A stretch of DNA of 57,999 bases from a virus. The notes below the pieces were generated by a model. The model did not search any database. It was not told where the DNA came from and was given only the letters and a program-made list of their open reading frames with translations. The position numbers and the translations under genes were made by a program. Below are positions 20,485-49,982 of the stretch, piece by piece; position 1 is the first letter of the stretch; the number at the start of each line of letters is the position of its first letter. The stretch is from IMG/VR virus record IMGVR_UViG_3300031962_000004, positions 1-57,999 of that record. The stretch is one strand, 5' to 3'.

Positions 20485-20500
20485 AGAAAGGAGAAATACC

Positions 20501-20557: not shown

Positions 20558-20679
20558 TTCCATCTTCCGCGTGAACGAGCGGCGGCAACGCCGGTCCCCT
20601 TTTCGCGGAGGGTTTGGATAACGCGGAGGAAGAGGGCTTGCGACCGAATCCTCCACACAATCACAAAGGAGCCTACCCC

Positions 20680-20772
20680 ATGAAGAAAATGAAGCGCGGC
20701 GGAAAGAAAATGCGGAAAGGCGCCAAGCTCACCACGCCGATGCGCGGAGTGAAGGGCGGAAGCAAGTACTAG
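20680..20772 (+). CDS. Ultra-basic micro-ORF, 30 aa (MKKMKRGGKKMRKGAKLTTPMRGVKGGSKY)
   Basis: AAAGGAG 8 nt upstream; TAG at 20770-20772. Confidence 0.4.
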   Translation: MKKMKRGGKKMRKGAKLTTPMRGVKGGSKY

Positions 20773-27281: not shown

Positions 27282-27412
27282 AATGTTCTTGGTGTCACCG
27301 CGTGGGAAGATTCTCTAAGGTGCTGGCCGGAGATCGCGGCGGAGGATGGTTTCCCGCTCCGGCGTGTCCCAAATGCCGCAAGAAATACAAACTCGAAAGG
27401 GTGGACCAATGA
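27278..27412 (+). CDS. Zinc-ribbon micro-protein, 44 aa
   Basis: ATGA overlaps at both ends; CSWCH...CPKC. Confidence 0.45.
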   Translation: MKCSWCHRVGRFSKVLAGDRGGGWFPAPACPKCRKKYKLERVDQ

Positions 27413-32521: not shown

Positions 32522-34660
32522 GTGCCGATTTCAGGCCAGCTCGGTTCCGGTTCGCTGGGGCAATTCGTCCTGGGTCAACCCGGACCGCTGACTTCGCAGC
32601 AAGCCTGGATTCAGTCTTTCACGGCCAGTAACTACGGCCCCGTCCTGCCCGGAACGGCGATCACTCTGACGTGGGTGAGCAAATTCGCCACTACCGCGAG
32701 CATTGCGCCAGCCGTGGGATCGGTCGCGACCAGCGGCTCAACCGTTGTCAGTCCCACGGTCACGACCACCTATACCCTGACGGTCTCTGACGGAGTGAAT
32801 CCTGCGCAGACGCGCTCTCTGACGATTCAGGTCACGGCTCCCGCCGTTTTCGTGCGTTCCGCCAAGAGCGGCCCAATAGTCGGAACCGATGTCAGTTGTT
32901 CGATGCAGTTGGATTTGGGTGATCTTGTTATCGTGGTCGCCTTCTCTAACACGCCTAGCAATTCCAATGACCTGAACGTAACAGACAGCCTGGGGAATAT
33001 TTATCACCCTGATGTCCAGGGCGGACTCTTCACGTTCGACACCTCCCCAGGTGCCTCGGCCCATGCCGGGAGCATGGCTATTTTTTCGACAATCGTGATG
33101 ATCGCGGGAAACGCAACCATCACTAATACTTCGTCCGCGCTTCACATACTGGCGATTGCGGCACTGGAATACGTCCCAGCTCCCGGAATGGCTTTCGCGC
33201 AAGGCGCTAAAATGATCGGCGATTCGGCGCCGGATTCAGGCGGTCCCCCCGAGTCCTTCGGGTCCGGCCCTTACAACTACGCCAATTCTATTATCATTAC
33301 GGCCATCAAAGACGGCTTTGGAAATCTCTGGAGTTCCGTCGATGGCGATACCAGCCGCGTGCAGATTCCGGGCGCAGCGTTCACAGGACAGGGCGCCTTG
33401 GGTTGCGCTGTATTCGATGCCATTCTCGCCGGGCCTGGAAGCAGAAATTCCAATCTGCAAGGCACGCCCATTGGCGGGGCAGGCACATTTGATTTTGAAA
33501 GCCCGAACATCCTAGTAGCTGTTTATTCCGCCCCGCTCGTGCGCCCCGTAGCCCTTGATTCGCAGGCTTCCGTTCGCGGCTCACTGGGTAGCACCATCGC
33601 CGGCTACGCTGGCCAGCCATCGGTTGATGTTTCGTTGGGTTATCTGCCGGAAATCGGTAGCGTCGTGTTTATCGCTGCGGAGGGTTCCTGGGACCTAACG
33701 GCACCTAACTTGCCGGCCTTTCAGCCGTCCGATACCTACGGCAATATCTACGCCCGGATCGTCCACTGGGAAGGTGTCGTAATCAACGGCGTGGCCCAGC
33801 AGCAGGCCGCAGCGATCTACTACACCATAGTTAAGCACCTTCCGGTCTCAGGTGTATTCACCGCCACCGTCCAGATGGCTCCCGTGAATGCCGGAGGGCC
33901 GGGCTGCGCGGCGATTGCAGAGTATGCCCTGGGCAATCTCAACCCGGCGAATATCCAAGCGGCGATTCTAGTCAACAAGACTACGGAAGGATCACTGAGC
34001 CGGTTTATTTCCGGCAACATCACAGTGTCGGGCCGGAGTCTCTACGCCGGGTTTGCGCAGGCCATTGCTAACGCCGGAAACAATGTGGCTACTCCGTTTC
34101 TACCTGCGGCTGGATACACAATTGATGCCCAGTGGAATCTCGCACAGGTCTACGTCACGCCGCTCAATAGCTGGCCGCGAGTCGGAACCGGAGCGTGGAT
34201 TCATAAGTACGTTCCGAGTGGGACTTACGATGGGGAAGGGCTGACGACTGGAACGCAACTAGGGGGCATCACGATTCTGGCTGTACCTGCGGGTGCTACC
34301 TTAACGATTGCGTGCCCCGTGGGAGCGGGAACCGCGCAAGTAGGAGTTCCTTACAGCGCACAAGTCATCGTATCTGGCGGCACTCCTCCCTACACTTTCG
34401 CAATTGTTTCGGGCCGATTACCTCCGGGCCTGACGCTGAATCCAATGAGTGGAATCATCAGCGGTATACCGACATTGCCTGATACGTTCCTCTATACCGT
34501 GCAAGTAACGGACGCTAACGGCCTCATGTCGGCGGTCACAGCGCCTTGTCAGATTATCGTGACTCAGAACGCGCCGCCGTTCTGTATCATTGTTCCAGTG
34601 CCCACCGTTCTTCCTACGCTCGTGGCGTTTAATGAACCGCTAGAAAATAAGGGCTCCTGA
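32522..34660 (+). CDS. Tail fibre / receptor-binding protein with a putative Ig-like domain
   Basis: GGTPPYTFAIVSGRLPPGLTLNPMSGIISGIPT near the C-terminus. Confidence 0.55.
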   Translation: MPISGQLGSGSLGQFVLGQPGPLTSQQAWIQSFTASNYGPVLPGTAITLTWVSKFATTASIAPAVGSVATSGSTVVSPTVTTTYTLTVSDGVNPAQTRSLTIQVTAPAVFVRSAKSGPIVGTDVSCSMQLDLGDLVIVVAFSNTPSNSNDLNVTDSLGNIYHPDVQGGLFTFDTSPGASAHAGSMAIFSTIVMIAGNATITNTSSALHILAIAALEYVPAPGMAFAQGAKMIGDSAPDSGGPPESFGSGPYNYANSIIITAIKDGFGNLWSSVDGDTSRVQIPGAAFTGQGALGCAVFDAILAGPGSRNSNLQGTPIGGAGTFDFESPNILVAVYSAPLVRPVALDSQASVRGSLGSTIAGYAGQPSVDVSLGYLPEIGSVVFIAAEGSWDLTAPNLPAFQPSDTYGNIYARIVHWEGVVINGVAQQQAAAIYYTIVKHLPVSGVFTATVQMAPVNAGGPGCAAIAEYALGNLNPANIQAAILVNKTTEGSLSRFISGNITVSGRSLYAGFAQAIANAGNNVATPFLPAAGYTIDAQWNLAQVYVTPLNSWPRVGTGAWIHKYVPSGTYDGEGLTTGTQLGGITILAVPAGATLTIACPVGAGTAQVGVPYSAQVIVSGGTPPYTFAIVSGRLPPGLTLNPMSGIISGIPTLPDTFLYTVQVTDANGLMSAVTAPCQIIVTQNAPPFCIIVPVPTVLPTLVAFNEPLENKGS

Positions 34661-37556: not shown

Positions 37557-39436
37557 TGCCGGATGTTTTCGATGAAATCGCTCCGTCCCCCTCGTCGTCC
37601 AAGGGCGACGTATTTGATGAGATCGCTCCCGACAAGGAAAAGAAAAAAGGAAAGAGCCAAGTCGGAGAATTCTTCTCTACCCTCGGAAGCGACATCTTAG
37701 ACATCCCTGGAGCCGTATACGGAGCGGCAAAGGATCTGCCGGGGACGCTGAAGGGTATGGAGTCCGCTCGCGAGGGGGAAGTAGAGGCCGGTGCGCAGGC
37801 GTTCAAGAAAGGCCAGTACGGAGAGGCTATCCGGCGCGGAGTGTTCGGCCAGATCCCCGTCATTGGTCCCGCGCTCTCGCAGGCTGGCACGGAAGCGGGG
37901 CGCGGGGAGTACGGCAAGGCGGCCGCCCACGCTCTGGAACTTACTCCCGTACCGGAATTAGCGGCCCGTGGTGCTTTGCGGCTCGGAAAGACAGCGGCGG
38001 TTGCCGCTAAAGGCAAACTCACTCCTAGGACCGTTCTCAACCCCAAGGAAGCACAGGCGATAGAGTTTGCCGAGAAACAGGGAGTACCTACTACTGTTGG
38101 TCAGAGAACCGGACAACTTGGGTTACAGAAGATGGAGCGTGGCCTTGAAAACTTCCCTGGTTCCGCATCGAAAACAGAGGATTTCTTCAAGGGTCAGCAG
38201 GCCAAACTAGCGGAGACAGGCGAGAAGTTGACACAGCGGGCATCGCCAGTCAAGACTAATGCCTACGGCGCCGGTAAACAGGTACAGGATGCGCTTTCGT
38301 ATCGCGTCACGCGGCTGAAGACCCAAGCCGATCGACTATACGATCAAGTACGCTCAGAAGCTGCCGCGAACACCAAGACTGTCCAAACAGGGCTCCAGAC
38401 CTCTCCGGTGGTTGGTCCATCCGGTCAGCCGATAACCACACCCGTCTTCAAAACGCTCGAAACCCCGGTGGAGTTAGCGCCCATACGTGATGCACTCAAG
38501 CCAGTCTTTGACGACCTAGAAAGGTCCCTGCCGGAAGCCCGTCGCGCGAACTCCCCTGCGTTCCGTGCACTGAGCGATGTTATGAAGTCCACCGAAACGC
38601 ACATGAACGCGATGGACTTCGACCGCTTCTTGAGCGCGGTCAAATCGATGTCGCGCGATGGAAAAAGCGAACTACTAACATCTAAGTCTCAGGGAATCGC
38701 CCGTAAGATCATCCAGGAAGGGGAAAGTCAGTTCCAGGCCGCGATGCAGACGGCAGGACCAGACACGATGGACAAACTTACCAAGGCTCGCGGAATGGTC
38801 AAGGCGTACTACGGGACAGACGAACTACTCAACTCACTGAGAGACGAACCAGCCGCTCTCTATAAGAATCTGGTGTCCGGTGGCGACGTGACCTTCAACA
38901 CCCTCCAGGAGCTTCGCAAGGTGGCGCCTCGCTCAGTGAATGTCGTCGGCAGGACTTTCCTGGAAGGGCTATTGAGCAAGGCTACTGCTGAGGGTGGATT
39001 CGGGAGGAGCGCCGGGGTACTTGCCGACTGGCAGCGCATGGGCCCGGAAACCAAGCAATTGCTATTTGGACCACAACTCACTGCCGACATGGACAAGTAC
39101 CTGCTTGCCGCTAAGCGCCTTACTCCGGTTGAGGGTTCTGCAACGGCTGGACGCATCTCGACACTGCTTCCATTTGGGATCGGAGCGGAGGTGGTTCGTC
39201 AGATTCTCACCGGGAATATAGCGGGCGCTGGCTTGACGGTAGCCGGTGGAGCGGCGATGGAATACGCCATACCGAATATCGCAGCACGAGTCCTATTCTC
39301 ACAGGACGGGGCGAGGTTGGCAGCGAGGGCTTTAACGCTTCCGCCTGGGTCTTCGGCATGGAATAGCGTGACTCGCAGGCTATTCACGGCGGCGCGCGGA
39401 GCCCAGATCGCCACCGAGAACCGCGACGAACAGTGA
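37556..39436 (+). CDS. Large Ala/Gly/Lys-rich protein, 626 aa (internal/ejection or tape-measure-like candidate)
   Basis: Track ORF; GTG start; N-terminal duplicated DVFDEIAP. Confidence 0.5.
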   Translation: MPDVFDEIAPSPSSSKGDVFDEIAPDKEKKKGKSQVGEFFSTLGSDILDIPGAVYGAAKDLPGTLKGMESAREGEVEAGAQAFKKGQYGEAIRRGVFGQIPVIGPALSQAGTEAGRGEYGKAAAHALELTPVPELAARGALRLGKTAAVAAKGKLTPRTVLNPKEAQAIEFAEKQGVPTTVGQRTGQLGLQKMERGLENFPGSASKTEDFFKGQQAKLAETGEKLTQRASPVKTNAYGAGKQVQDALSYRVTRLKTQADRLYDQVRSEAAANTKTVQTGLQTSPVVGPSGQPITTPVFKTLETPVELAPIRDALKPVFDDLERSLPEARRANSPAFRALSDVMKSTETHMNAMDFDRFLSAVKSMSRDGKSELLTSKSQGIARKIIQEGESQFQAAMQTAGPDTMDKLTKARGMVKAYYGTDELLNSLRDEPAALYKNLVSGGDVTFNTLQELRKVAPRSVNVVGRTFLEGLLSKATAEGGFGRSAGVLADWQRMGPETKQLLFGPQLTADMDKYLLAAKRLTPVEGSATAGRISTLLPFGIGAEVVRQILTGNIAGAGLTVAGGAAMEYAIPNIAARVLFSQDGARLAARALTLPPGSSAWNSVTRRLFTAARGAQIATENRDEQ

Positions 39437-40200
39437 GGTTCTCTACAACATCTCTAGCGGAATTAAGTACGTGCGGAGAGCGTTACCGCCAGCGCTACGT
39501 CCAGCAGATCCGCACGGCCCCAAACTTCAACCGCATCCTGGGGCGCGCGGTGGACGCGACCGTAACCCAGGACCTGCAATCCAAGATCGAGACGGGAGAG
39601 TTGCTTAAGCCTAATAATGTAACGGAGATCGCGAGACTGCAAGTTGAAACCATAATAAGACTCGACGGGATCTCGCTCACGGAAGCCGAAGCCGCCAAGG
39701 GGATGAACCGCGTGCGGACGGAACTTACGCAACTGGCGGTCCAGATGAGCCAGCTTCATCATTGCTATATCGCTCCGCGCCTGGTTCCCACGCAGGTGCA
39801 GCGTGATTTCGAGATCCAGATCGCGGGCCACACGATCACCGGCAGGATTGACATACAGGAAGGGAGCCGCGCGATTCGCGACACCAAGGTCAGCGGGCGC
39901 TCCCCCTCCTCCGATGAGGCGGATCGCAGTTTGCAGTTGACGATCTACGCGATGGCGTGCGCGCAACTCGATGGAAGAATCCCGGATCGCTTGTATCTGG
40001 ACTACCTCATCCACACGACCGATCCGCGCGTAGTAAAGCTGGAGACGACTCGGGCGCGTCACCATTTCCATGCGGTCGAGGAGAGGGTGCTCGCGGCGGT
40101 TAAGGCCGTAGAGAGCGGAGTGTTCCTGCCGGCTAATCCTGATGCTTGGTTCTGCTCTGAACGATACTGCGCCTACTTCGCGGGATGCAGGTACGTTTAG
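39433..40200 (+). CDS. Cas4/RecB-family PD-(D/E)XK exonuclease with a 4-Cys cluster
   Basis: N-terminal Cys (LSTCGERY); GRIDIQEG..IRDTKV; QLTIY; C-terminal CSERYCAYFAGC. Confidence 0.7.
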   Translation: MRFSTTSLAELSTCGERYRQRYVQQIRTAPNFNRILGRAVDATVTQDLQSKIETGELLKPNNVTEIARLQVETIIRLDGISLTEAEAAKGMNRVRTELTQLAVQMSQLHHCYIAPRLVPTQVQRDFEIQIAGHTITGRIDIQEGSRAIRDTKVSGRSPSSDEADRSLQLTIYAMACAQLDGRIPDRLYLDYLIHTTDPRVVKLETTRARHHFHAVEERVLAAVKAVESGVFLPANPDAWFCSERYCAYFAGCRYV

Positions 40201-40496
40201 TCCTGATCTGAACCGAACATCGCCTTCACCAACTCTTCTTCGATCTGCCGGTCGCTGAACCCCTGCTCCTTCAACTTCGCCCGCATGTCGTCCAGATCGT
40301 CTTCGCTAGGCTCCTGTCCATACTCCCCGATAGCTTCGGGGCCGAGCGGTTTCTCGGGCATGGGAACGGCTTCAGGGATACGTAGCACCGCCTCCACACA
40401 CGCCGCGATGCGCTCGAACGCGGTCGCCATGCGGCGGACCTCGGACACTAGTTCGTCGCCTTGCTGAGCGGTCAGGAGTTTATCAAGGAGACTCAT
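40197..40496 (-). CDS. Hypothetical acidic protein, 99 aa
   Basis: Track ORF; ATGA overlap upstream. Confidence 0.6.
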   Translation of the reverse strand: MSLLDKLLTAQQGDELVSEVRRMATAFERIAACVEAVLRIPEAVPMPEKPLGPEAIGEYGQEPSEDDLDDMRAKLKEQGFSDRQIEEELVKAMFGSDQD

Positions 40497-41173
40497 TTCT
40501 TTAGAACGGTGACGCGACCAGGTAGTTCTTTCTCACTCGCAATGGCATCGTGAATCTCAGGGTCCATCGCGGGTGTCGCCCAGTCTTCCGCTTCCTGCCG
40601 GGCGATGCGCTGCGCTTGCTCTGGCGGGATGTTCAAGTCGTTCGATGCCGCATAGGAGATGGCGGGTCCTTTCTTAAGCCCCGCCGCTACGTCCACGGGC
40701 TTGTGGTCTTCCGCGAGTGCGGGTGTACGCGGAACGCGCCCACCCACGGGCGGAAGTTCCGGGTCCTTCACACTGATCTTCGACTTCACCCGCGTATCGA
40801 CGTACTGGCCCTCTACCCGATGGGTTTCCATCCGGCCGAGTCCGGTTTCTTCCCGCTCTACCTGTGGATCTTTCTCCCACCCGATGATGGGCGAGTCGTG
40901 CTCGAGTTCCACCGCCTCCTCGCGGACCTCCACGAACTCGCGGCCCTCGACCACGCAGCGTTCCAGGAACTTGTCGTTACGCACGGGGTCTCCAGGACCT
41001 TGGGACTCGTAGGGGATGACCTGAATGGTGACGGAGTAGCGAACCAATGGGTAGGCATACATTGCGCGCAGGTTCATGGCCTGCAAGATTCCCTGGTGCA
41101 CACGGTCCTCGATGATGGTGCGCAGTTCGTCGCCGTTTAGGCTGTGGTGTGCTTCCTGTCGTCGGTCTGGCAT
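40493..41173 (-). CDS. Hypothetical protein, 226 aa
   Basis: Track ORF. Confidence 0.6.
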   Translation of the reverse strand: MPDRRQEAHHSLNGDELRTIIEDRVHQGILQAMNLRAMYAYPLVRYSVTIQVIPYESQGPGDPVRNDKFLERCVVEGREFVEVREEAVELEHDSPIIGWEKDPQVEREETGLGRMETHRVEGQYVDTRVKSKISVKDPELPPVGGRVPRTPALAEDHKPVDVAAGLKKGPAISYAASNDLNIPPEQAQRIARQEAEDWATPAMDPEIHDAIASEKELPGRVTVLKK

Positions 41174-41174
41174 G

Positions 41175-41252
41175 TTACCTCTTTCTCTGATTCAACAGTA
41201 ACGCGATCAATGCGGCGAAGGCGCACAGCGCCTCCCAGTGGTCTACGGTCAT
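41175..41252 (-). CDS. Micro membrane peptide, 25 aa
   Basis: ATGA overlap with the upstream stop; MTVDHWEALCAFAALIALLLNQRKR. Confidence 0.3.
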   Translation of the reverse strand: MTVDHWEALCAFAALIALLLNQRKR

Positions 41253-41758
41253 ATTTTCTTGGCGATGAACACGATTCCGTAGTCGGTCGGATCAGGGCAG
41301 GTATCTAAGATGATCTCATAATCCATAAGATTGAGGACTTCACGAGATATTTCTCCCACCTCCGGCTCGTGCTTATGAGCCAAGTTGGGAGGCTGTCCTC
41401 CAGTAATGGCTTTGGCCCATCTGTGTTTTTCGGGAGCCAGGATAATCAGGTGTCCTCCGAACTGCAGAACGCTATCCCATTCCTTCAGAAGCTCCGGCCA
41501 CTCCCCGATATCGAAATCTTCAATCAGGTGGCTAGAGTAGACGAAAGTCAAACAGTTCCTTCTAAACCACCATAGCTTTCGTCCATCTCCTCTAAGGTGG
41601 ATCGGTCCAGGACCGATCAGTGGGCAGTACGGTTTCTGCAGGTCGATCTGGATAGCGTGTGGAACCACGGGATCGCCAGCGCTCCCGATGTCTACACCAG
41701 CCCCGGTACAGTAAGGCGCGGTCAGGTGGCGATACTTTGATGTCTCGCTAGTCGCCAT
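41249..41758 (-). CDS. Class I SAM-dependent methyltransferase
   Basis: GAGVDIGSAGDP (motif I-like); FVYSSHLIEDF; LQFGGHLIILAP. Confidence 0.7.
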   Translation of the reverse strand: MATSETSKYRHLTAPYCTGAGVDIGSAGDPVVPHAIQIDLQKPYCPLIGPGPIHLRGDGRKLWWFRRNCLTFVYSSHLIEDFDIGEWPELLKEWDSVLQFGGHLIILAPEKHRWAKAITGGQPPNLAHKHEPEVGEISREVLNLMDYEIILDTCPDPTDYGIVFIAKKI

Positions 41759-42503
41759 ACGTTTCCTTCAGCTCCCGCTGAATCCAGTCAGGTGTCGATT
41801 CGCTACCCATCCGGTAGGTGATCGCGAACTCTTCCGTGTGGCGTCCGTCCGAGTACACCGCTCCCGCGATCTCCCGGTCGAAGAATTCCTCGTGCGAATG
41901 CACCCCCACGCGTCCGATGTTACGTGCCCTCGACACCAACGGGTAGAGCGACTTCCATCCGTACTCGTGCATCGCCATTGCGAGCGACCAGTCCCAGCCC
42001 AACTGAGTCTTGAGCTGGCGGTTCCACTCTGGGCGCATCCGTTCCCACTGTGCGCGGCTAAAGCACCACGCCGATGTGTAGATGGACCGGCACTCGTGGA
42101 TCTCTCGGTAGTTCTCGTCGCGGGGGACCACCTTACGGTAGTGCGGGTCACCGAGAGAGCAGAAGGCGTAGTCCTCGGCGTCCCACATCCCATAAAACCA
42201 GTCGGCTAGTTCCAGTGCGTCTGGAGAAAGGATTACGTCGTCTTCAAGCGCGACGTTGAAATCTACATCGTTGGAGCGGTCAAACACCGCGTTGTAGCAC
42301 TTCGCGTTGTGGTGGTCGATCCCGTAGTGGTTTTGTAGGTACACTATCTCCCATGAGGGAGGCACCTTGATCTTGAGTGGACTCCCGCCGTCAACAGATA
42401 CCAGCACTGCATAGTTGTCGACACCACGGCAGTCGATCAAAGCATGGATGCACTGCTCTAGATACTCCGGTCGATTGTACGACAGTATAGTCACTGTGCG
42501 CAT
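41748..42503 (-). CDS. GT-A fold glycosyltransferase (GT2/GnT-I-like)
   Basis: ATG at 42503 after GAGAGG; VTILSYNRPEYLEQCIHAL; LEDDVILSPDA (DxD). Confidence 0.7.
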   Translation of the reverse strand: MRTVTILSYNRPEYLEQCIHALIDCRGVDNYAVLVSVDGGSPLKIKVPPSWEIVYLQNHYGIDHHNAKCYNAVFDRSNDVDFNVALEDDVILSPDALELADWFYGMWDAEDYAFCSLGDPHYRKVVPRDENYREIHECRSIYTSAWCFSRAQWERMRPEWNRQLKTQLGWDWSLAMAMHEYGWKSLYPLVSRARNIGRVGVHSHEEFFDREIAGAVYSDGRHTEEFAITYRMGSESTPDWIQRELKETYGD

Positions 42504-42561
42504 TGATCCATTGCCTCTCGCTTCCGCGCATACATCCGTCTCCAAATGCGGTTATGGCATT

Positions 42562-43260
42562 TCATGTCCAGCCCTTGGCTTCCTTTACTTTCTGCCAATG
42601 AGTTATATAACGCCTGTCTTCCGGGTTGCGCCAGATACCGCCGTTGTAGTGGACTACGGGAGCCTCGATGGGACCGTCCGCATCCTCGTATCCCCACATG
42701 GTCTGAAAGATCCGGCGCTCGGAGTCGATCACGGCGCCGGGCAACTGGCCTGTTAGAAAAGAGTTGATCCAGATGGGCTGATCGTTGATCTCCTGGATGA
42801 TCTCGCTCGCCTCGATCATTCTCTCGATCACGTCAATCAGATAGCCGACTTGGCCGAACCATGTTCCCGCGTTGATAAAGCGGTACGGTCCCTTCACCTT
42901 TGGGTATAGCATCTCGTACTCTGGATGCGGCCAGCAGTTCTTTTCCGCACTCAACACGAGGGAAGGGCACCCGAGCAACTCCCATCCTCCAACGATCTCG
43001 CCCTCTCCGCCCTGGAGAAAGGTATCGAATCCGTCCGACCATAGCGCGTGGGTGTAGGCTTGGGTTTCCTGGATGAGTTTCAGGTGCTCCAGGGCCGCGA
43101 CCATCTTACCCACTCGCATGTCGCCCGACGCTGGCCACACGCCGTTCAGTTCGGCGGCTTGGCAGAATCCCAGATCGACATTATTGAGACGGCAAGACTC
43201 GGTGAGGATCGCGGCAAACTCCGGCTTTTCGTAACATGCGGATAGAACGCAGATGTTCAT
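42562..43260 (-). CDS. Putative glycosyltransferase (nucleotide-diphospho-sugar transferase-like)
   Basis: ATG at 43260 after GGGGA; WSDGFDTFL; SAEKNCWP; RFINAGTWFG. Confidence 0.5.
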   Translation of the reverse strand: MNICVLSACYEKPEFAAILTESCRLNNVDLGFCQAAELNGVWPASGDMRVGKMVAALEHLKLIQETQAYTHALWSDGFDTFLQGGEGEIVGGWELLGCPSLVLSAEKNCWPHPEYEMLYPKVKGPYRFINAGTWFGQVGYLIDVIERMIEASEIIQEINDQPIWINSFLTGQLPGAVIDSERRIFQTMWGYEDADGPIEAPVVHYNGGIWRNPEDRRYITHWQKVKEAKGWT

Positions 43261-43385
43261 TGCGTCATCCCCACGCAAACTGCACCTTGGTGAGTTTGTC
43301 CAGATCAAAAATTCGGAGATCGTCATGGTAGCGTGGGTTGTACGCCGCTAACATGAGTGGCGTGAACCCGATTATCTTGAGGCGC

Positions 43386-44174
43386 TTAGACATCCTTCAC
43401 TGGCCTCCACTTTCTTGCGCGAGCCCCCTTGGCGGCGTGCTTCGCCCGCTCCTCTACGATCTTGGGGATAGTATCGGTCGCATACGCCTGCCAGAAATCC
43501 TCTTCCTGCTGCCGCCATAGCAGCGCCCTGTACGCTTTGGACACCCTTCGCATGGCTTCCGTCATGGCTCGCACGGTCTCGACCAAGCCCGCGAAGGAAC
43601 TGATCCGCAGGCGTGGCAAGAATGCAGGTGGGATCTCCACTCGGTTGATGACGCCCTTTCCCCACCGGACCTGAATGTGGACCGTGATCTCAGGCAGACC
43701 GCGGGACGGATCGCGGTTCGACCACCAGGAACGGAATAGCAACAGGCGCCGTCGCATCTCGGAACGCCGAGGTAGGATGTCGGACGCCATTTCCTTCCCC
43801 TCGCGGATATCGGATTCGAGCATCTCCATCCGCCGACACATCGTCGGCGAGGGAGTATAGTGGCCCGAAATCAGAAACCGGAGCGTGCGCCGAGTGATCC
43901 CCAAGAGTCCAGATAGGCGGTGAAGCGAGAGCCCCTGCATTTCCGAAAGGGCCTTAATCCTACCCGGTTGCCAGTCCTTAACGGCCTCGTGGTAGGCTTT
44001 AGAGCGCTGCTGACGCCATTCGTTCGGGTTCATGAGGACCTCAACGACGCGGTTTCTCTGCATCTGGCGCCACTGAAAACGGTAAGTTGAGGGTACATTC
44101 TTCCGTTTCCGGCGCTCTCCACCATCGTAGTATAACGGTCCCTTATTTCGATGTTGGTGCTTTGAAAGAGTCAT
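43386..44174 (-). CDS. Arg-rich protein with a helix-turn-helix segment
   Basis: LSLHRLSGLLGITRRTLRFLISG. Confidence 0.55.
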   Translation of the reverse strand: MTLSKHQHRNKGPLYYDGGERRKRKNVPSTYRFQWRQMQRNRVVEVLMNPNEWRQQRSKAYHEAVKDWQPGRIKALSEMQGLSLHRLSGLLGITRRTLRFLISGHYTPSPTMCRRMEMLESDIREGKEMASDILPRRSEMRRRLLLFRSWWSNRDPSRGLPEITVHIQVRWGKGVINRVEIPPAFLPRLRISSFAGLVETVRAMTEAMRRVSKAYRALLWRQQEEDFWQAYATDTIPKIVEERAKHAAKGARARKWRPVKDV

Positions 44175-45529
44175 TTATTTGCAACAACCTGCACGTTGGG
44201 AGCGGGTTTTGAGTAGTCAATTATCATGGCTGCGGCAATCGCGTCAATAATTGCACTGGCGGTCCACCCTTCCGTCTTTGTCTCCCGGTAGTAGGTTACA
44301 TGGGGTCCGTACCAGCGATCACGGTCGCGGGGGGTCCCCAAAATTTGCGTCTGTGGCATGAACTGGGATTTTACGTCCGGACCAAAGTCTCTGACCGAGT
44401 ACTTCCAATCAGAACGGCACGGCAGCAGTAGAAGGGTCGGAACCCCGAGAAGTGCGGCCAAGTGGAAGCCAGCCGTATCTACCGCCACCACCAGATCCAT
44501 GGATAAGATGTAGCTGGCCGTCTCGTGCCAAGTGGCTAGTTTTTCTTCTTCCTGGATCACTCGCTGCGGCACGCGGAATTTGTCGAACTTATGAAGTCCC
44601 TTATTCTGTGGGCACAGCCCGTAGACGGGTCCGTACTTCGCCAGTTCCTTGGCGACGACTCCCGCCGTGTGATCATCTAGCGATCGGATCTTGCGGACGC
44701 TACCGTTCTCCTCGGCTCGCCAGCAATAGCCGATCCGCGGCGGGTCATGATGAATTCTAGGGACTCGCTCGTGGCTCGGAAGAGTCTCAATGAAGGCGTC
44801 CCGCATCCCGTCAGGCGGAATGTCCGTCCACGACTTCATCTTAAATATGCCCGGGAGGCTCATGATCGAGATGCTATAGTCCCAGTCGGATGCCCGCACG
44901 GACTTCTTGAGTGGGATGATCTCGTTGACACCGAATCTCTTCCAGTCGCAGAAGTCGAGCAACTTATCCCACATCAGAATTCCGACGCGATCGGACATCT
45001 CGCGCACCTTGGGTATCCAACGGCTGAACAGGAAGGCGTCTCCGAACCCACCTTCGGGCACGATCAGTACGCGGGAATTCGGCTCTCCTCGCCACAGCTT
45101 CGTCATGGGCAAGGTTCCCCATGAAGCTGCGAAGCGGCCGGCCTCGAACGCTTCCCAGGAGTACTCGAACTGGCCGAGACGCATCAGTGAGTATGCGAAT
45201 CCAAGAAGAATCTGCTGCATCGAACCATGGGTTGTAGGGGTGGATTCCGCCACCCTGAGTGCCCGCTGAAAGATCGCAGGGACTTCTTGAAACTTTCCCT
45301 GATCGCTATATACCTGGGCGATGTTGTTCCAGACCTCCGCGCTTTTACCCTGCGTCAGCACCAAGCATTCGTGAAGCGTGTCCATCGCTCGTTCAAACTG
45401 ACAGCAACCGCGTTGCGCGGCGGATAGCACCAGAAGATTATCGATGGTGGGTTCCTTCTTAGCCTTCTTAGCTAGAAGCGGAAGTGCGCGGTGCGGGGCG
45501 CCGGCTTGCAGCATTTCAACGGCTGTCAT
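44171..45529 (-). CDS. TPR-repeat + GT9 (heptosyltransferase-like, GT-B) glycosyltransferase fusion
   Basis: N-terminal TPR-like helices (about 130 aa); RVLIVPEGGFGDAFLFSRWIP; DLVVAVDTAGFHLAALLGVPTLLLLP. Confidence 0.7.
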   Translation of the reverse strand: MTAVEMLQAGAPHRALPLLAKKAKKEPTIDNLLVLSAAQRGCCQFERAMDTLHECLVLTQGKSAEVWNNIAQVYSDQGKFQEVPAIFQRALRVAESTPTTHGSMQQILLGFAYSLMRLGQFEYSWEAFEAGRFAASWGTLPMTKLWRGEPNSRVLIVPEGGFGDAFLFSRWIPKVREMSDRVGILMWDKLLDFCDWKRFGVNEIIPLKKSVRASDWDYSISIMSLPGIFKMKSWTDIPPDGMRDAFIETLPSHERVPRIHHDPPRIGYCWRAEENGSVRKIRSLDDHTAGVVAKELAKYGPVYGLCPQNKGLHKFDKFRVPQRVIQEEEKLATWHETASYILSMDLVVAVDTAGFHLAALLGVPTLLLLPCRSDWKYSVRDFGPDVKSQFMPQTQILGTPRDRDRWYGPHVTYYRETKTEGWTASAIIDAIAAAMIIDYSKPAPNVQVVANK

Positions 45530-45678
45530 TTAAGTTTCTCCGCTTTGATCCCCGATTCAATCAGACGCTCGATGAGACGCGACAATACGAAACCGTCCCG
45601 ATCCGCAATCCGGCGCAACATTTTTAGGAGATTCTTTGAAACTTTTACGGATTCGCGTTCCACGGTTCTAGGATACAC
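45526..45678 (-). CDS. Ribbon-helix-helix (CopG/Arc-like) regulator heading the glycosyltransferase operon
   Basis: ESVKVSKNLLKMLRRIADRDGFVLSRLIERLIESGI; GTG at 45678 or leaderless GTG at 45663; ATGA overlap with the GT9 gene. Confidence 0.55.
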   Translation of the reverse strand: MYPRTVERESVKVSKNLLKMLRRIADRDGFVLSRLIERLIESGIKAEKLK

Positions 45679-45715
45679 GTCTCCACCACGGTAGTCAATA
45701 TTATTACTGGTGGAG
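45670..45715 (-). promoter_or_regulatory. Promoter TTGACT-N17-TATCCT bracketed by the 8-bp inverted repeat CTCCACCA/TGGTGGAG
   Basis: -35 at 45698-45693 and -10 at 45675-45670 on the minus strand; IR arms at 45681-45688 and 45708-45715. Confidence 0.4.
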
Positions 45716-45732
45716 TGAGGTGGCGAAACGGT

Positions 45733-46098
45733 TCATTCCTCTAGCAATTGGTAATTGATGATGGGAGATCCGCTGACCGCCTGCATGTTCATCATGAGGG
45801 CGTAAATGGCGTTCGCTCCAGATCCACGGTACGTATCCGCGGCGGAGGCGCCTACGAGCGTGGCACCCTTCTGCACAATGCCGCCCACCGTGGTCCCGGT
45901 GCTTCCATCTCCGATTCTGACGCTCAGGCCAGCAGAGGTCTCCGGGTCCACCTGGAACTGAACCTCGCGCCACGAACCGGATAGGCTAAGATCTATGCCG
46001 AGCTGCGTCTTTACGAGGTCGATAAAGCGGGCCAAGGTCGTCGAGATTGTGATCGAACCGGACATGTACCCCTTGCGGTTAGCGGTGTTCTGCGGCAT
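45733..46098 (-). CDS. Hypothetical protein, 121 aa
   Basis: Track ORF; GAAGGGA 6 nt upstream. Confidence 0.6.
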   Translation of the reverse strand: MPQNTANRKGYMSGSITISTTLARFIDLVKTQLGIDLSLSGSWREVQFQVDPETSAGLSVRIGDGSTGTTVGGIVQKGATLVGASAADTYRGSGANAIYALMMNMQAVSGSPIINYQLLEE

Positions 46099-46128
46099 CG
46101 GATATCCCTTCGGGTGTATTATATACCC
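46099..46128. promoter_or_regulatory. Compact bidirectional AT-rich promoter with overlapping -10 boxes on both strands
   Basis: TATTAT at 46117-46122 (plus) and TATAAT at 46123-46118 (minus) inside a 30-bp divergent gap. Confidence 0.35.
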
Positions 46129-48015
46129 ATGCTAGAACTAAGGGCCTACGGATGGTTGATACTGTTGTCTTTTTTTTGTGCTAGCGCGTGTGCGCAGCCT
46201 ACTCCGGGGGCCTTGACCGTCAACCAGACCACCGTGAATGGCGGGATCACGGGGGACTGCCTCAAGGTCAAGGCGGGCCAGATTTTGGATCAGGGAGCAT
46301 GCGGCGGTGGCGGGGCCGTCTCCCTCACAGGCGGCACGGGTATCAGCGTAAGCCCGAACCCGATCACCGGCACGGGTGTCATCACCAACACCGCCCCAGG
46401 CGCTTCCCCGGCTGGCTCGGCTGTCACGGATGCACAGTGTTGGGCGAGCGCTTCGACGTTCGGGGTGTGCGTAAATCCGATTATTGGTGGTTTGAATATC
46501 ACGGGCCTGCCCATCAGCACCGGCGTCTCTGGCTTGGGAACTGGCATCGCTACCGCTCTCGGTATCAACGTCGGCAGCGCGGGAGCGCCGGTGCTTTTCA
46601 ATGGCGCCGGCGGTACGCCGTCATCGCTGACGCTCACCAATGCTCTTGGTCTGCTGGCGGCGGGTTTGCCAAATGCGGGGGTTTTCACCGGGGATGCCAC
46701 AACCACCTTCCCAGCTCTTACCATCGGTAACAACGCGATCACGGCGATCAAGATGGTGAATGCCGGTGTTTTCACGGGCGACGCGACCAGTACCTTTCCC
46801 GCGATCACGATTGGAGCCGGAGCCATCACCGCCGCCAAGATGGTCAACAGTGGCGTCTTTACGGGAGATGTCACGACTACTTTTCCAGCTATCACCGTGG
46901 CGCGAGTTAATGGCATCACGTACTCTGCCACGGCGGCGGCGCACTCGGTCGAAGTCATCACCACGGCTAATACCACAGCCACGGCTAAAGTGATTCCGGA
47001 CTGCACCGACTCGGCCGGAAATCACATCAACTATACGCAGTCAACCGATGCGTTTTCCTGCGGCACGTCATCGAGCGGCAGTGGAACGGTCACCTCTGTC
47101 GGCTTCACGGGTGGTTTGATTTCGGTGGGGACTCCGACGACGACTCCTGCCTTCACCGTTGCGGGAACTTCCGGCGGAATTCCTTACTTCTCCGGCGCGG
47201 CAACCTGGGCATCTTCTGGAGCCGGAGTTCAGAACGCCATGATGGCCTGGGGCGGGGCGGGGAACGCGCCGACTTCCCCGTTGGCCCTTCTCGTTACTAA
47301 CCAGAATAGCGCCACGGAATTATGGACCCTTTACAATTCGACCCCGACGACTGGTGTGACGGAATTTAAAATCCGTGTTGGGGCAGCCACGACTAACCCG
47401 CCTTTCCACCTGTATGCGAACAATGGAACTACTGAAATTGCCCGCGTTCAGACCAATGGGGTGCTTCGAGGCTCGAATCAGATCATTTCTCATAACTCCG
47501 ACTTGAGCGGTACCGAGAATATAGCTATGAACTCCGTCTCTGGCTCCGGCGGTGAAGGCTTCAGGGCTTCTAGCGTAGGCGGCGTTCGATTCAGCTCCGA
47601 TACTACCTGGTTCGGCAGTGCGGACGGGATGGTTGATCGGGATGCCGCTGGAATTGTCGGCGTCACCAACGGTACACAGGGCACCACCGCCGCGAATTAT
47701 CGCGCGATCGCGGCAAGTGCCCATTACGTAAAAGGGACAACCTTCACAGCTTCCGGCTGCTCGAACGGCACGCTGGTTGGCGGGGCCACGGCGGGTAAGT
47801 TCACGGTGGGCGCTAACTCCTGCACGGTTGTCGTCACCATGGGCAATAGCGCCACAGCGCCGAATGGGTGGTTTTGCAGCCCGCAGGATCAGACCACCGC
47901 AGAACTCACAGCGGGAGTTTATCAATCTGCATCAACCACAACCACGGCGACTTTCACGGTTCCAGTGACGGCGGGAGCTACCGACGTGATCGGCTTTGCC
48001 TGTATTGGGTATTAA
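46114..48015 (+). CDS. Fibre-like repeat protein with an N-terminal signal peptide
   Basis: Track ORF; alternative ATG at 46129; WLILLSFFCASACA/QP; Gly/Thr/Ser-rich; three 29-aa repeats. Confidence 0.6.
   Translation: MYYIPMLELRAYGWLILLSFFCASACAQPTPGALTVNQTTVNGGITGDCLKVKAGQILDQGACGGGGAVSLTGGTGISVSPNPITGTGVITNTAPGASPAGSAVTDAQCWASASTFGVCVNPIIGGLNITGLPISTGVSGLGTGIATALGINVGSAGAPVLFNGAGGTPSSLTLTNALGLLAAGLPNAGVFTGDATTTFPALTIGNNAITAIKMVNAGVFTGDATSTFPAITIGAGAITAAKMVNSGVFTGDVTTTFPAITVARVNGITYSATAAAHSVEVITTANTTATAKVIPDCTDSAGNHINYTQSTDAFSCGTSSSGSGTVTSVGFTGGLISVGTPTTTPAFTVAGTSGGIPYFSGAATWASSGAGVQNAMMAWGGAGNAPTSPLALLVTNQNSATELWTLYNSTPTTGVTEFKIRVGAATTNPPFHLYANNGTTEIARVQTNGVLRGSNQIISHNSDLSGTENIAMNSVSGSGGEGFRASSVGGVRFSSDTTWFGSADGMVDRDAAGIVGVTNGTQGTTAANYRAIAASAHYVKGTTFTASGCSNGTLVGGATAGKFTVGANSCTVVVTMGNSATAPNGWFCSPQDQTTAELTAGVYQSASTTTTATFTVPVTAGATDVIGFACIGY
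46678..46920 (+). repeat. Tandem 87-bp (29-aa) coding repeats, GVFTGD(A/V)T(T/S)TFPA(L/I)T(I/V), 2.8 copies, diverged at synonymous sites
   Basis: Repeat units start at 46678, 46765 and 46852. Confidence 0.8.
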
Positions 48016-48027: not shown

Positions 48028-49677
48028 ATGAAAACTTTTCTCTCTTTTTTCTTGTTAGCCTTCCCGATCTTCTCGCAAACCCTTGGCGGTTATATCGTCG
48101 TCAACACCGCCTGCGGCGTCGTGGGCGACAAAATCACTGATGACACTGCTGCGCTACAAGCCTGTATCAACGCCGCACCGGATTACGCGGAACTCGTTTT
48201 CCCTGCTGGTCTTCAAATGAAGATCACCGCCGCACTGAACCTTCACGGACGTTATGGCATCCGCTTCCTGGGAGAAACTAGCATCTTTGCGGGTCCGAGC
48301 GCTAATACAGCCGCACCGACCTTTTATTGGTATGGACCAGACGGTGGAACGATGCTCGACATCAACCGCAGCCAGAACTTCCTCATCGAAGGACTGACTT
48401 TCATGAGTTCTGACAACTTCAAGACCGGCACGGGCGGTGCATCCATCGGAATTTATATAACCCAGACGCTCAGTACGGGACCGATTACGACGGATGGGAT
48501 TCTGGAGCGCGTTTCAATATATGGCACAGAGCAGAATCCTGGCTTCCGGGCTATTGTCTTCTCGGAAGGCAGCAATCAGAATGTCGAGAATATGACCGTT
48601 AGAAACTCAGTCGTCTCCTGCTCCTACGGAACTGGTTTTCAGACAGCGTTAGGGCAGGGCATCGTTCTCGCAGGCACGCAAAACGCGCAAGGACATACGT
48701 ACGAGAGGAATACGATCACCAACTGTGCCACCGGCATCTACATCGCAGGCCCAGGCGGAAGCCCATTGAGTATCCTGCGCAACAACTTCAACAGCAACGG
48801 CACGCACATCTATTCCGCGACGACGTATGCGCCTGTCGTGATCGAAGGGTCCGATTCCGAAAACTGCTCTTATTTCTTTCAGGGAACTGGACAGTTGCAA
48901 TTTTCCAATAACCGCGTGGCGGCCTGTTCGCCGCCCTCGGGGAAAGGAGTGTTCGCCTTCGGAGCGACAGGGCAGGTGGTGTTCACGAACAACAAAATCG
49001 AAGGCAATGTCATGCCATTCTCCGCGGATTCCTATGTGTTCATCGTGGACTTCGCCAACAGCTACGGTGCAAATCCTGCGACCATGGCGGCGTCCCGAGT
49101 TGCCATCAAAAGCGGTTCGATCAATACGCTCTCTGCGATGGGATTTCTGTCCACGGGTGGCTCGCAATTAGGGCGATTCGGCTCTGGCAGCGGCCAGGGT
49201 CCAGTCGCCGGTCTTGGACTTTTGGATTATTCAAAGGAATTGAACCGCTGGGCCTCAAGCCAGAACGGATCGAATTGGGTTCCGTTAGCAACTGACCCCT
49301 CACCCGGAATTACTTTGACCGCACAGGGGGCGATGCCCTCCTGCGGAGCCTGGCTAGATCTCCAAAGCAATGGACATCAGGAAGTGTCGTCAGCCTCTAG
49401 GCCCTTCACCCCTGCGGATGTCGGAGGGGTATTGCATCTCAGTTCTGGCGTCAACTTTGTTCCAGCGGATTACATAGTTACGCGGTATTTCAACAGCGGG
49501 ACCGTCTCTCTGATCCAGGACCCAAGTACCAACTTTCAAGCTAACGGCTTCAGCGGATCGTTCACGCTAAATCGAGGCAGGATCATTCGCGTGGAAGGAA
49601 CTTCAGGGGTTGCCGATACGCTGATGATCTGCCAGAAAACCATGGCGGACGTTTATGCTTGGGTGGCGCTGCAATGA
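48028..49677 (+). CDS. Right-handed beta-helix (pectate-lyase-fold) protein with a signal peptide; depolymerase/tailspike-like
   Basis: MKTFLSFFLLAFPIFS/QT; GDKITDDTAALQACINAA...LVFPAG. Confidence 0.65.
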   Translation: MKTFLSFFLLAFPIFSQTLGGYIVVNTACGVVGDKITDDTAALQACINAAPDYAELVFPAGLQMKITAALNLHGRYGIRFLGETSIFAGPSANTAAPTFYWYGPDGGTMLDINRSQNFLIEGLTFMSSDNFKTGTGGASIGIYITQTLSTGPITTDGILERVSIYGTEQNPGFRAIVFSEGSNQNVENMTVRNSVVSCSYGTGFQTALGQGIVLAGTQNAQGHTYERNTITNCATGIYIAGPGGSPLSILRNNFNSNGTHIYSATTYAPVVIEGSDSENCSYFFQGTGQLQFSNNRVAACSPPSGKGVFAFGATGQVVFTNNKIEGNVMPFSADSYVFIVDFANSYGANPATMAASRVAIKSGSINTLSAMGFLSTGGSQLGRFGSGSGQGPVAGLGLLDYSKELNRWASSQNGSNWVPLATDPSPGITLTAQGAMPSCGAWLDLQSNGHQEVSSASRPFTPADVGGVLHLSSGVNFVPADYIVTRYFNSGTVSLIQDPSTNFQANGFSGSFTLNRGRIIRVEGTSGVADTLMICQKTMADVYAWVALQ

Positions 49678-49982
49678 GATTCACCATATTCTTTCTCGCC
49701 CTCGCGCTCCAGGCGCAGGGCCTACCTTTTTGCGCGGGCGGTTCACATCCGTCAAATGAGCCCTGCCGTCCAGTATCAGAAGTTCTTAACCCGGAGGCAA
49801 GATGCGAAGCCACCGACTGGAAAGTCCGCGCGGAATGGCTGGAAGCAAAAGCTGCGCAACTTGAGAGTAAGCTAAACGCTGTGGTGCAAATGTACAACGC
49901 GGATATGGCGTTGACCGGACTCGCGGCCAAGGAGCCGCCTAAGCCTGCGCCCGCCAAATCGCCCGTGCAAGGAGAGAAGTGA
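49674..49982 (+). CDS. Small exported protein, 102 aa, 4 Cys plus a coiled coil
   Basis: ATGA start at 49674; MRFTIFFLALALQA/QG. Confidence 0.55.
   Translation: MRFTIFFLALALQAQGLPFCAGGSHPSNEPCRPVSEVLNPEARCEATDWKVRAEWLEAKAAQLESKLNAVVQMYNADMALTGLAAKEPPKPAPAKSPVQGEK

Follow-up and report, generated by a model that had tools for sequence, protein, structure and literature searches.

The bacterial autotransporter heptosyltransferases (BAHTs) TibC and Aah act in the cytoplasm, where they O-heptosylate the Ser/Thr-rich β-helical passenger domains of proteins destined for Sec export, and their genes adjoin that of the substrate. In phages, Freeman et al. 2023 reportedly described glycosylation of mycobacteriophage virions by phage-encoded glycosyltransferases (GTs), and to our knowledge actinobacteriophages are the only phages in which experiments have demonstrated that phage enzymes glycosylate the virion, which changes its recognition by antibodies. 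Actinobacteriophage virion glycosylation by phage GTs is also treated in PMC11256854, giant viruses, whose glycan machineries are reviewed in PMC9614988, make glycans of their own with unusual enzymes, and Mimivirus R699 is a viral collagen galactosylhydroxylysyl glucosyltransferase (PMC9546862, PMC12279948). In FlmG, a tetratricopeptide repeat (TPR) domain binds the flagellin acceptor and a GT-B domain sets the donor (PMC7591256; bioRxiv 10.1101/2022.03.25.485807), and in the MT/5mYOX-dependent clusters GT-A and GT-B enzymes build mono- to trisaccharides, including heptose, on DNA (bioRxiv 10.1101/2023.12.21.572611). Here, we analyzed a leftward operon in IMG/VR virus record IMGVR_UViG_3300031962_000004 (positions 1 to 57,999, the whole stretch being referred to as the window), in which a fusion of TPR helices to a GT9-like GT-B domain (TPR-GT9) is encoded together with two GT-A enzymes and a probable methyltransferase (MTase). 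A literature search found no paper describing such a phage TPR-GT9 glycosylation system.

The operon very probably encodes a set of glycan-building enzymes, and its best explanation, which we hold with about even confidence, is a phage-encoded glycosylation system of the cytoplasm whose acceptor is most likely a protein. Positions 40197-46098 of the minus strand carry a tightly packed set of open reading frames (ORFs) of, in transcription order, 121, 50, 452, 262, 254, 265, 169, 25, 226 and 99 aa. Those named by an initial annotation of this DNA, including the 25-aa ORF, all lie on that strand at the coordinates below.

45733-46098, minus strand: 121-aa ORF with no family match; a gene call on an identical ENA contig; membership in the unit uncertain
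45681-45715: candidate operator/promoter, an 8-nt perfect inverted repeat (CTCCACCA/TGGTGGAG) with a 19-nt spacer, bracketing the -35
45698-45670: sigma-70-like site, TTGACT-17-TATCCT, whose -10 hexamer overlaps the annotated GTG start of the next ORF
45526-45678, minus strand: probable ribbon-helix-helix (RHH; Arc/CopG-like) protein, 50 aa, whose stop overlaps the TPR-GT9 start by 4 bp
44171-45529, minus strand: TPR-GT9 fusion, 452 aa, predicted cytoplasmic; TPR superhelix (~residues 1-120) and GT9-like GT-B domain
43386-44174, minus strand: XRE-type helix-turn-helix (HTH) protein, 262 aa, Arg-rich, translationally coupled to TPR-GT9
43265-43393, minus strand: uncertain 42-aa ORF separating the genes of the HTH protein and the PLOD-like GT; a gene call on the identical ENA contig
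42562-43326, minus strand: PLOD/LH3-type GT-A, longest ORF 254 aa (likely start 43260, giving 232 aa); variable cargo
41748-42545, minus strand: GT13/GT16-like GT-A (β1,2-GlcNAc-transferase family), 265 aa (likely start 42503, giving 251 aa)
41249-41758, minus strand: probable class I S-adenosylmethionine (SAM)-dependent MTase, 169 aa; variable cargo
41175-41252, minus strand: putative 25-aa hydrophobic ORF that fills the gap between MTase and 226-aa gene exactly
40493-41173, minus strand: 226-aa acidic protein, conserved backbone, with orthologues in related loci L002, L003, L011, L012 and L024
40197-40496, minus strand: 99-aa acidic protein, last gene of the unit, converging on a Cas4-like gene

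Overlaps of 4 bp (ATGA) link the RHH ORF to TPR-GT9, TPR-GT9 to the HTH gene, the MTase to the 25-aa ORF and the 226-aa to the 99-aa gene, other gaps are ≤59 nt, and GC3 of the operon ORFs (0.58-0.73) shows a coding-like bias. By this packing and GC3, by gene calls on the identical ENA contig (from which the likely true starts at 43260 and 42503 were also taken) and, for most, by orthologues in related contigs, the ORFs are real genes. The three GTs that had been claimed are borne out in fold and motif by Pfam, PDB and family-profile matches, and for TPR-GT9 also by structure prediction.

In the 452-aa protein, TPR profiles span residues ~7-98 (Pfam TPR_12, 3.5e-6), and an AlphaFold2 (AF2) model built on a 31-sequence alignment (pLDDT 88.8, pTM 0.88) has seven helices over residues 3-117 followed by alternating β-strands and helices, as in the GT-B fold. 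Searched against PDB with Foldseek, the model gave 96 matches at E ≤ 0.001, the best 50 of which are SPINDLY (SPY)/OGT and GT9 enzymes. The top full-length matches are SPY/OGT (E = 4e-8 to 1e-5; global TM-score ~0.3), and the catalytic part matches WaaF (1psw, 1.1e-6), 3tov (2.7e-6), WaaC (2h1h, 6.5e-6) and TibC (4rap, 9.8e-6), the catalytic-domain matches including a Veillonella GT9. The fusion recognized in the initial annotation, with its likeness in architecture to protein GTs, is thereby upheld. At the sequence level, PDB matches to OGT/SPY cover query residues 25-108 only, inside the TPR region, and matches outside the TPRs go to GT9 alone and not to a GT41-type catalytic domain; the window protein has ~3 TPR pairs, compared with 11-13 in OGT/SPY.

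Its own PF01075 (GT9) score, 13.0-13.6 bits, stays below the cut-off of 22. Of 15 family members, 12 match PF01075 at E ≤ 0.1 (best 6.6e-5), and NCBI names the bacterial homologues as GT9 proteins. A full-length family profile run against PDB was swamped by TPR matches and was replaced by one trimmed to the catalytic domain, for which WaaF was the sole non-TPR sequence match; as that match is marginal (E = 0.094), the GT9 assignment rests on the family-level Pfam matches and on structure. Across 31 sequences, residues E159-G160-G161-x-G163-D164 and D351 never vary and T352 almost never does, and the C-lobe motif VDT(A/G)xxHLA aligns with TNDSGLMH of WaaF; D164 presumably corresponds to Asp13 of HepI. 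Because these catalytic motifs are invariant, TPR-GT9 would be expected to be an active enzyme. No signal peptide or membrane segment was found in any operon enzyme, and as their N-termini are not hydrophobic, the enzymes should be cytoplasmic.

Structurally similar, uncharacterized TPR-GT proteins from uncultured phages and from Synechococcus phage S-SRM01 were seen in BFVD. An exhaustive search also turned up many giant proteins (P0131, P0133, P0134, P0139, P0152 and others) of 1,000-3,140 aa with 3-10 tandem TPR plus GT9-like modules at ~25-29% identity, and in homologue P0050 a He_PIG (Ig-like) segment is inserted between the TPR and GT domains; a He_PIG domain also occurs in the window's 712-aa structural protein (32522-34660).

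The 265-aa protein scores 29.2 bits for MGAT2 (cut-off 27), 25.0 for GNT-I (cut-off 25.4) and 4.8e-9 for POMGNT1, and a profile of the family (17 phage homologues) matches POMGNT1 at 9.8e-17, MGAT2 at 6.1e-12 and GnT-I at 8.2e-11. E101-D102-D103 and D185 are invariant in the 17 homologues and align with vEDDLe and WDDW of GnT-I, whose catalytic base is Asp291. For the 254-aa protein, the Pfam GT_PLOD match is well above threshold (56.2 bits against 27; E = 3.8e-15), PDB matches are Mimivirus R699 (7e-6), the best solved relative, and the human LH3 GT domain (5e-5), and the motifs DGFD/DSYD (DxxD), NCWP/FCWP and RFINAG/RFLNSG (RF(I/L)N(A/S)G) align with those of R699/LH3. Solved relatives of both GT-A enzymes all act on protein-linked glycans (PMC9546862; PDB matches): without exception, those of GT13/GT16 transfer β1,2-GlcNAc to a sugar of mannose configuration carried by a glycoprotein, while those of PLOD/LH3 add glucose to galactosyl-hydroxylysine. 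The latter acceptor cannot be assumed here, because genome-wide Pfam scans showed no 2-oxoglutarate (2OG)-Fe oxygenase or lysyl hydroxylase and no window ORF has a collagen-like (G-X-Y)≥6 repeat; a collagen-type target was rejected on the same grounds. The only repeat protein found, a (G-X)n protein at 5727-6440 (plus strand; GYGDGDGSGS..., ~110 residues), has just a spurious low-complexity Pfam match under threshold (TrAA12). Its nomination in the initial annotation as a target, under the name of (GX)55 protein, did not hold, as it is not collagen-like and offers no special rationale for the PLOD-like GT.

The SAM MTase called earlier is probable: its own Methyltransf_11 score is below threshold (E = 0.006; 17.5 bits against 21.2) and it found no match among PDB sequences, but it shares 68% identity with the N-terminal part of an L003 protein of 486 aa that has a recorded Methyltransf_11 match. 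Its motifs VDIGSAGD and FVYSSHLIEDF were read by eye. Deposited phages have almost no relatives of the three GTs. In 50,697 deposited phage genomes, blastn with the operon gave 0 matches and hence no relative at the DNA level, TPR-GT9 had one weak match (podovirus MW202512, the only GenBank record with a detectable TPR-GT9 relative), the GT13-like GT had one weak match (Microbacterium phage Magritte), and the PLOD-like GT matched only Synechococcus phages, two of the matches being annotated 2OG-Fe(II) oxygenase proteins.

To set the operon among its relatives, 37 phage loci were compared, 31 of which came from an alignment-based IMG/VR scan; single-protein IMG/VR scans with TPR-GT9 and the PLOD-like GT had returned nothing. 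TPR-GT9 has ~55 close phage-type homologues (33-67% identity), many on contigs of 57-64 kb, and the exhaustive search gave 224 cluster representatives at E < 1e-30. Close relatives keep the order TPR-GT9, HTH protein, cargo, 226-aa gene, 99-aa gene and convergent Cas4-like nuclease, and differ in the cargo, taken here as whatever separates the 226-aa gene from that of the HTH protein:

Window: PLOD-like GT, GT13-like GT, MTase
L005: DUF1828, IS1595 transposase, then GT13-like GT and MTase
L002: one Methyltransf_9/23-type MTase
L003: none; an MTase-fusion protein and IS1595 copies nearby

The operon is therefore not one co-inherited unit, but a backbone (TPR-GT9, HTH, 226- and 99-aa proteins) with variable cargo (GT-A enzymes and MTase). 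The GT13-like GT is the commonest TPR-GT9 partner (12 of 37 loci), often immediately after it, and is the very next gene in L006, L013 and L020; in L006 it had been taken for the HTH partner. The PLOD-like GT occurs in 2 of the 37 loci. Among 107 ORFs downstream of TPR-GT9, Pfam identified Methyltransf_24 (6), GT2 (4), Glyco_tranf_2_3 (3), GDP-mannose 4,6-dehydratase (3; 7e-118), Epimerase/RmlD (3), the rhamnosyl O-methyltransferase family (2), GT11 (2) and MGAT2 (2). TPR-GT9 thus forms a conserved anchor, around which an island of glycan genes varies.

The surroundings of this anchor differ between lineages. TPR-GT9 lies directly upstream of the terminase large subunit (TerL) gene in L004, L007, L008 and L017, and in L033-L037 a distant GT9-like subfamily is flanked by tail-fibre genes (tail fiber phrog, 5.6e-20; tail protein, 9.5e-40). 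In podovirus MW202512 the major capsid protein gene and two hypothetical genes are followed by TPR-GT, an endonuclease, an FkbM MTase and a GalT-like GT, and then by another hypothetical gene and a tail accessory protein. A set of TPR-GT, GT-A and MTase thus recurs in unrelated phage backbones, often within structural modules. Larger islands follow TPR-GT9 in distant relatives (L006:12338-13912 and neighbours; L013, L019, L020) and hold a 521-aa epimerase/GDP-mannose-dehydratase-like protein, two GT2 enzymes and more ~480-aa proteins; members of the clade seem to differ greatly in glycan complexity.

IS1595-family transposase genes (Zn_ribbon_IS1595 plus DDE_Tnp_IS1595) were also seen near TPR-GT9 in three related contigs (L002:4657-5583; L003:9022-9945 and 19770-20696; L005:15021-15956). 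The presence of insertion sequences suggests that these phages spend long periods in cells, and the IS1595 copies may drive the turnover of cargo.

The window is a complete, circularly assembled genome of ~57.9 kb, as its ends have an exact 127-bp direct repeat in common (1-127 = 57873-57999) and the ENA metagenome contig ERZ27256973 (58,013 bp) matches it at 100% over 21,359 bases, rotated by ~24 kb. By gene content it is a tailed phage, which also encodes ERF and YqaJ recombination proteins, HNH nucleases, a small serine recombinase and pectate-lyase-like proteins; about half of its ORFs have no family match. Features outside the operon that bear on the following are:

14224-14871, plus strand: serine recombinase/invertase, 215 aa (Resolvase, 1.3e-27; phrog DNA invertase, 1.4e-33), just upstream of the packaging genes
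15482-17629: TerL
18193-20226: portal
22105-23316: major head protein
39433-40200, plus strand: Cas4-like PD-(D/E)XK nuclease (Pfam, 2.4e-19; PADLOC Cas4, 2e-6) with a C-terminal Cys cluster, kept in the same position in close relatives

The four best matches to TPR-GT9 in genome collections are phage-sized contigs of 57-63 kb, binned with metagenome-assembled genomes of Bryobacterales, Ca. Sulfotelmatobacter, Acidobacteriaceae and Verrucomicrobiia. On this binning, a weak basis, the host is probably an acidobacterium (Acidobacteriota).

In the mechanism that we propose, the TPR superhelix of the 452-aa enzyme would hold the acceptor protein, and the GT9-like GT-B domain would transfer the first sugar, with the Asp of the invariant GGxGD motif as putative general base. 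The donor would be a host-made nucleotide sugar, possibly ADP-heptose. Genome-wide Pfam scans of the complete genome found no sugar-nucleotide synthesis genes, including those for heptose, and sugar donors must therefore come from the host; the pathway is not "self-contained", as it had been called, and some relatives do carry GDP-mannose dehydratase or epimerases. The GT-A enzymes (GT13/GT16-like and PLOD/LH3-like) would then extend the glycan, the SAM MTase would cap a sugar, and the swappable cargo would give related phages different glycans. A GT9 enzyme adding a manno-configured heptose would fit chemically with GT13/GT16 enzymes, which put β1,2-GlcNAc on manno-configured acceptors, although this pairing is conjecture. 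The recurrence of glycan genes beside TPR-GT9 homologues agrees with the earlier proposal of a methylated oligosaccharide built on a protein, in which the protein acceptor, like the order of steps and the donor sugars, is what we infer from the genes.

That the acceptor is a protein we consider slightly more probable than not. The resemblance of TPR plus GT-B to OGT, SPY and FlmG points this way indirectly, as do TibC/Aah, the flagellar neighbours of cellular homologues, the relatives of the GT-A enzymes and the structural-module contexts. It is plausible, but we would put it below an even chance, that the acceptor is specifically a structural or exported protein of the phage; Ser/Thr-rich fibres, spikes and head-associated proteins would be the substrates. 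Candidates, and other ORFs with signal-like N-termini in the window, are:

46114-48015, plus strand: 633-aa Ser/Thr-rich (24%) repeat protein, candidate acceptor, divergent from the operon, with a signal-peptide-like N-terminus
27346-28854: 502-aa Ser/Thr-rich candidate, signal-like N-terminus
31858-32520: 220-aa Ser/Thr-rich candidate
32522-34660: 712-aa Ser/Thr-rich candidate
48028-49677, 49659-49982 and 53499-54011: signal-like N-termini

The 633-aa protein, which could conceivably be a glycosylation acceptor, has no family match, and its adjacency to the operon is not kept in relatives; directly after it lies the gene for a 549-aa pectate-lyase-like protein, also with a signal-like N-terminus. 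Signal-peptide-like starts such as MLELRAYGWLILLSFFCASACA|QPTPG and MKTFLSFFLLAFPIFSQ are found on fibre/spike-like and β-helix proteins, and occur in relatives as well (L003:2174-3841, L026:12687-14213, L026:17637-18734, L030:16177-18468). Such starts are odd for tail proteins, which assemble in the cytoplasm. The fibre/spike-like proteins that bear them may be exported proteins instead of virion parts, and by analogy with autotransporters and TibC/Aah they could be acceptors of a cytoplasmic glycosylation that precedes export. The initial annotation had described the operon as wedged between two virion-type modules, which is true of the left flank, the end of a structural operon; proteins of the right flank have signal-peptide-like N-termini.

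Taken together, a tentative picture is that of an uncultured clade of ~58-60 kb soil phages, probably of Acidobacteriota, in which a near-core TPR-GT9 would prime phage surface proteins in the fashion of TibC/Aah, possibly including the fibre/spike-like proteins with signal-peptide-like N-termini, after which the swappable cargo of each phage would build its own methylated oligosaccharide. Several points weigh against phage-directed protein glycosylation. Both the acceptor and glycosylation itself are predicted here from genes, the 452-aa protein falls under the Pfam GT9 threshold (13 bits versus 22), and the backbone may function separately from the cargo. L002 and L005, the closest relatives, have ERF/RecT-YqaJ recombination genes transcribed divergently from the operon, a layout that looks like an early operon and that host takeover or DNA modification would fit equally. 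Flagellin adjacency among cellular homologues is modest: a flagellin motif was found near 4 of 77 loci, where roughly one would be expected by chance (a rough estimate), and flagellin, FliD or FliS genes adjoin 2 of 16 loci by Pfam. Functions that appear to be missing may lie among the unmatched half of the ORFs. Finally, GT9 enzymes are classically lipopolysaccharide (LPS)-core heptosyltransferases.

This last point leads to the rival that survives best, remodelling of the host envelope, which we nevertheless regard as unlikely. Here the substrates of the enzymes would be lipid-linked precursors of LPS core, O-antigen or exopolysaccharide (EPS), modified at the cytoplasmic face, for which prophage-encoded TarP, acting on wall teichoic acid, is a precedent, and the altered cell surface would serve superinfection exclusion or aid release. 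Membership of TPR-GT9 near the LPS heptosyltransferase family, with WaaF and WaaC among its best structural matches, would suit such a role, but LPS heptosyltransferases lack the TPR acceptor-type domain that is invariant in the phage family. Likewise, cargo such as GT2, GT11, GDP-mannose dehydratase and rhamnosyl O-MTase is typical of O-antigen/EPS clusters, and the pectate-lyase-like proteins of the genome imply that surface polysaccharide is relevant to the phage, yet the operon has no membrane proteins, no flippase or polymerase was found among the genome and operon proteins scanned, and neither gtrABC (GtrA flippase, GtrB bactoprenol GT, GtrC) nor an acyltransferase_3 family was found in the complete genome, as the initial annotation had reported for gtrABC. 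The prolonged residence in cells that the IS1595 insertions of relatives suggest has to be set against the recombinases of the window genome, in which no tyrosine or large serine integrase was detected and the 215-aa serine type is the only one. In other lineages, moreover, the gene lies within structural modules.

We find it rather improbable that the target is regulatory, in other words that TPR-GT9, as an early or middle gene, redirects the cell by adding sugar to a protein of the host (flagellin, pilin, a defence or translation factor) or to the HTH protein with which it is co-translated, with GT-A and MTase cargo extending the glycan. FlmG is a precedent (PMC7591256), some cellular homologues have flagellin, FliD or FliS genes as neighbours, and the operon's divergence from recombination genes in L002 and L005 would suit an early function; elsewhere, the neighbours are TerL, fibre or capsid genes. 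TPR-GT9 is translationally coupled to the clade-specific, highly basic HTH protein (14.9% R, pI 11.2), whose HTH identification stands (HTH_3, 2.3e-5; 24.8 bits against a cut-off of 23) and whose AF2 model is poor outside the HTH (pLDDT 53). The HTH protein has 12 homologues in 5.8 billion proteins, all metagenomic, and is specific to the close clade. Against a regulatory target, it accompanies TPR-GT9 in just 8 of 37 loci. A variable cargo that adds several sugars would also make more sense on an exposed surface structure than on a switch inside the cell. The HTH protein was also considered as a terminase small subunit and rejected, the gene between TPR-GT9 and TerL in L004 being MTase-like and non-homologous.

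More doubtful is the absence of any single pathway, with TPR-GT9 serving a backbone function of its own, possibly non-catalytic or scaffolding, and the PLOD-like GT, GT13-like GT and MTase being unrelated morons in a permissive site. Cargo does differ in close relatives and is absent in L003, IS1595 copies lie in the same region, and GC is slightly lower across 41-43 kb (0.55 versus ~0.59), but the catalytic motifs of TPR-GT9 are invariant, and glycan genes recur beside it at 21-33% identity and in different gene orders, which a hotspot would not predict.

Sugar hypermodification of DNA, in which the GTs would decorate phage bases against restriction as in T-even phages or MT/5mYOX-dependent clusters, is very improbable: although phages are documented to encode GT-A and GT-B enzymes for the transfer of hexose, HexNAc, heptose or Kdo to 5-hydroxymethylcytosine (bioRxiv 10.1101/2023.12.21.572611), the early-operon-like position fits, L003 has a C5 DNA methylase and MTase-like genes adjoin TPR-GT9 in L004, the complete genome has no Pfam-detectable (E ≤ 0.001-0.01, genome-wide) C5-MTase, TET/JBP-type dioxygenase, thymidylate-synthase-like or dCMP/dUMP hydroxymethylase, or DNA polymerase, in keeping with the absence of hypermodification precursor genes noted earlier, the best 50 of the 96 Foldseek matches are SPY/OGT and GT9 and do not include T4 β-GT, JGT or TarP, the TPR domain has no known role on DNA, and MTases near homologues are mostly of the Methyltransf_24/CmcI/FkbM kind and not of the DNA C5 family. 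A defence or anti-defence role was likewise rejected, no operon protein having a PADLOC match.

Returning to the glycosylation operon, its RHH and HTH proteins would be its regulators. The 50-aa ORF (pI 10.35) has two independent sub-threshold matches, to RHH_5 (E = 7.3e-4; 19.7 bits against 26) and to the Arc-like repressor phrog_3180 (7.8e-4), which make an RHH protein probable. The inverted repeat that had been proposed as its binding site within 45681-45715 does exist but is likely to be at about chance level, promoter-like sites show no enrichment (3 found, 3.0 expected from shuffles), and "RHH-controlled" thus draws on the two family matches and a chance-level repeat. A terminator scan gave 0 terminators. 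The 226-, 99- and 121-aa proteins have no Pfam, PHROG, NCBIfam or PADLOC match, and the 226-aa protein also no PDB sequence match; the L003 homologue of the 121-aa ORF sits elsewhere in the L003 locus.

All of these enzymes fall in or near fold families already described, and viruses are known to encode glycosylation. New are the TPR-GT9 fusion as a conserved gene of an uncultured phage clade, its place as the anchor of a variable glycan island, and soluble phage homologues of GT13/GT16 and PLOD GTs, families solved in eukaryotes and giant viruses. If the proposed function is true, phages that infect Gram-negative bacteria would have here their first protein-glycosylation system, in the form of a hypervariable "glyco-island" that can be likened to O-antigen loci. 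Glyco-engineering would gain a modular enzyme, in which the TPR chooses the acceptor and the GT-B domain the donor, and the relatives that eukaryotic GT13/GT16 and PLOD enzymes have in prokaryotic viruses would be placed in a testable context.

Compared with the systems already described, the phage enzyme can be set beside FlmG by its TPR plus GT-B architecture. FlmG, however, is a cellular protein of 596 aa that transfers pseudaminic or legionaminic acid, whereas members of the phage family are encoded by viruses, alongside GT-A extenders and MTases. OGT and SPY (GT41) have the same succession of TPR superhelix and GT-B and are the best full-length structural matches, but the phage catalytic domain is nearer GT9 by sequence. 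Within GT9 (CAZy), WaaC and WaaF are its closest relatives by profile and structure, and differ in lacking a TPR domain and in acting on lipid A-Kdo. TibC combines a GT9-related GT-B fold (Foldseek, ~1e-5) with a substrate encoded next door, much as the window has a signal-like Ser/Thr-rich protein beside the operon; BAHTs lack a TPR domain and form iron-binding dodecamers, and no autotransporter β-barrel was detected in the window.

For the cargo, POMGNT1, GnT-I (GT13) and MGAT2 (GT16) have an EDD metal motif and, in the aligned WD(W), an acidic residue, both of which are invariant in the phage family, whose members differ in being soluble cores of ~250 aa with no membrane anchor, stem or lectin domain. 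LH3/PLOD3 and R699 have the GT_PLOD match and the DxxD, CWP and NxG motifs in common with the 254-aa protein but work in another context, as the window genome has no detected lysyl hydroxylase, 2OG-oxygenase or G-X-Y protein. MT/5mYOX clusters differ in their adjacent C5-MTase and TET-like dioxygenase and in GTs like T4 β-GT, JGT or TarP, none of which was found here. A functional parallel would be with actinobacteriophages and giant viruses, in which virus GTs, some with MTases, decorate capsid or tail proteins independently of host protein-glycosylation systems. Those systems use other enzyme families with no TPR-GT9 anchor described, whereas the present one, read from its genes, belongs to a phage of a Gram-negative host, probably of the Acidobacteriota, and is built around such an anchor.

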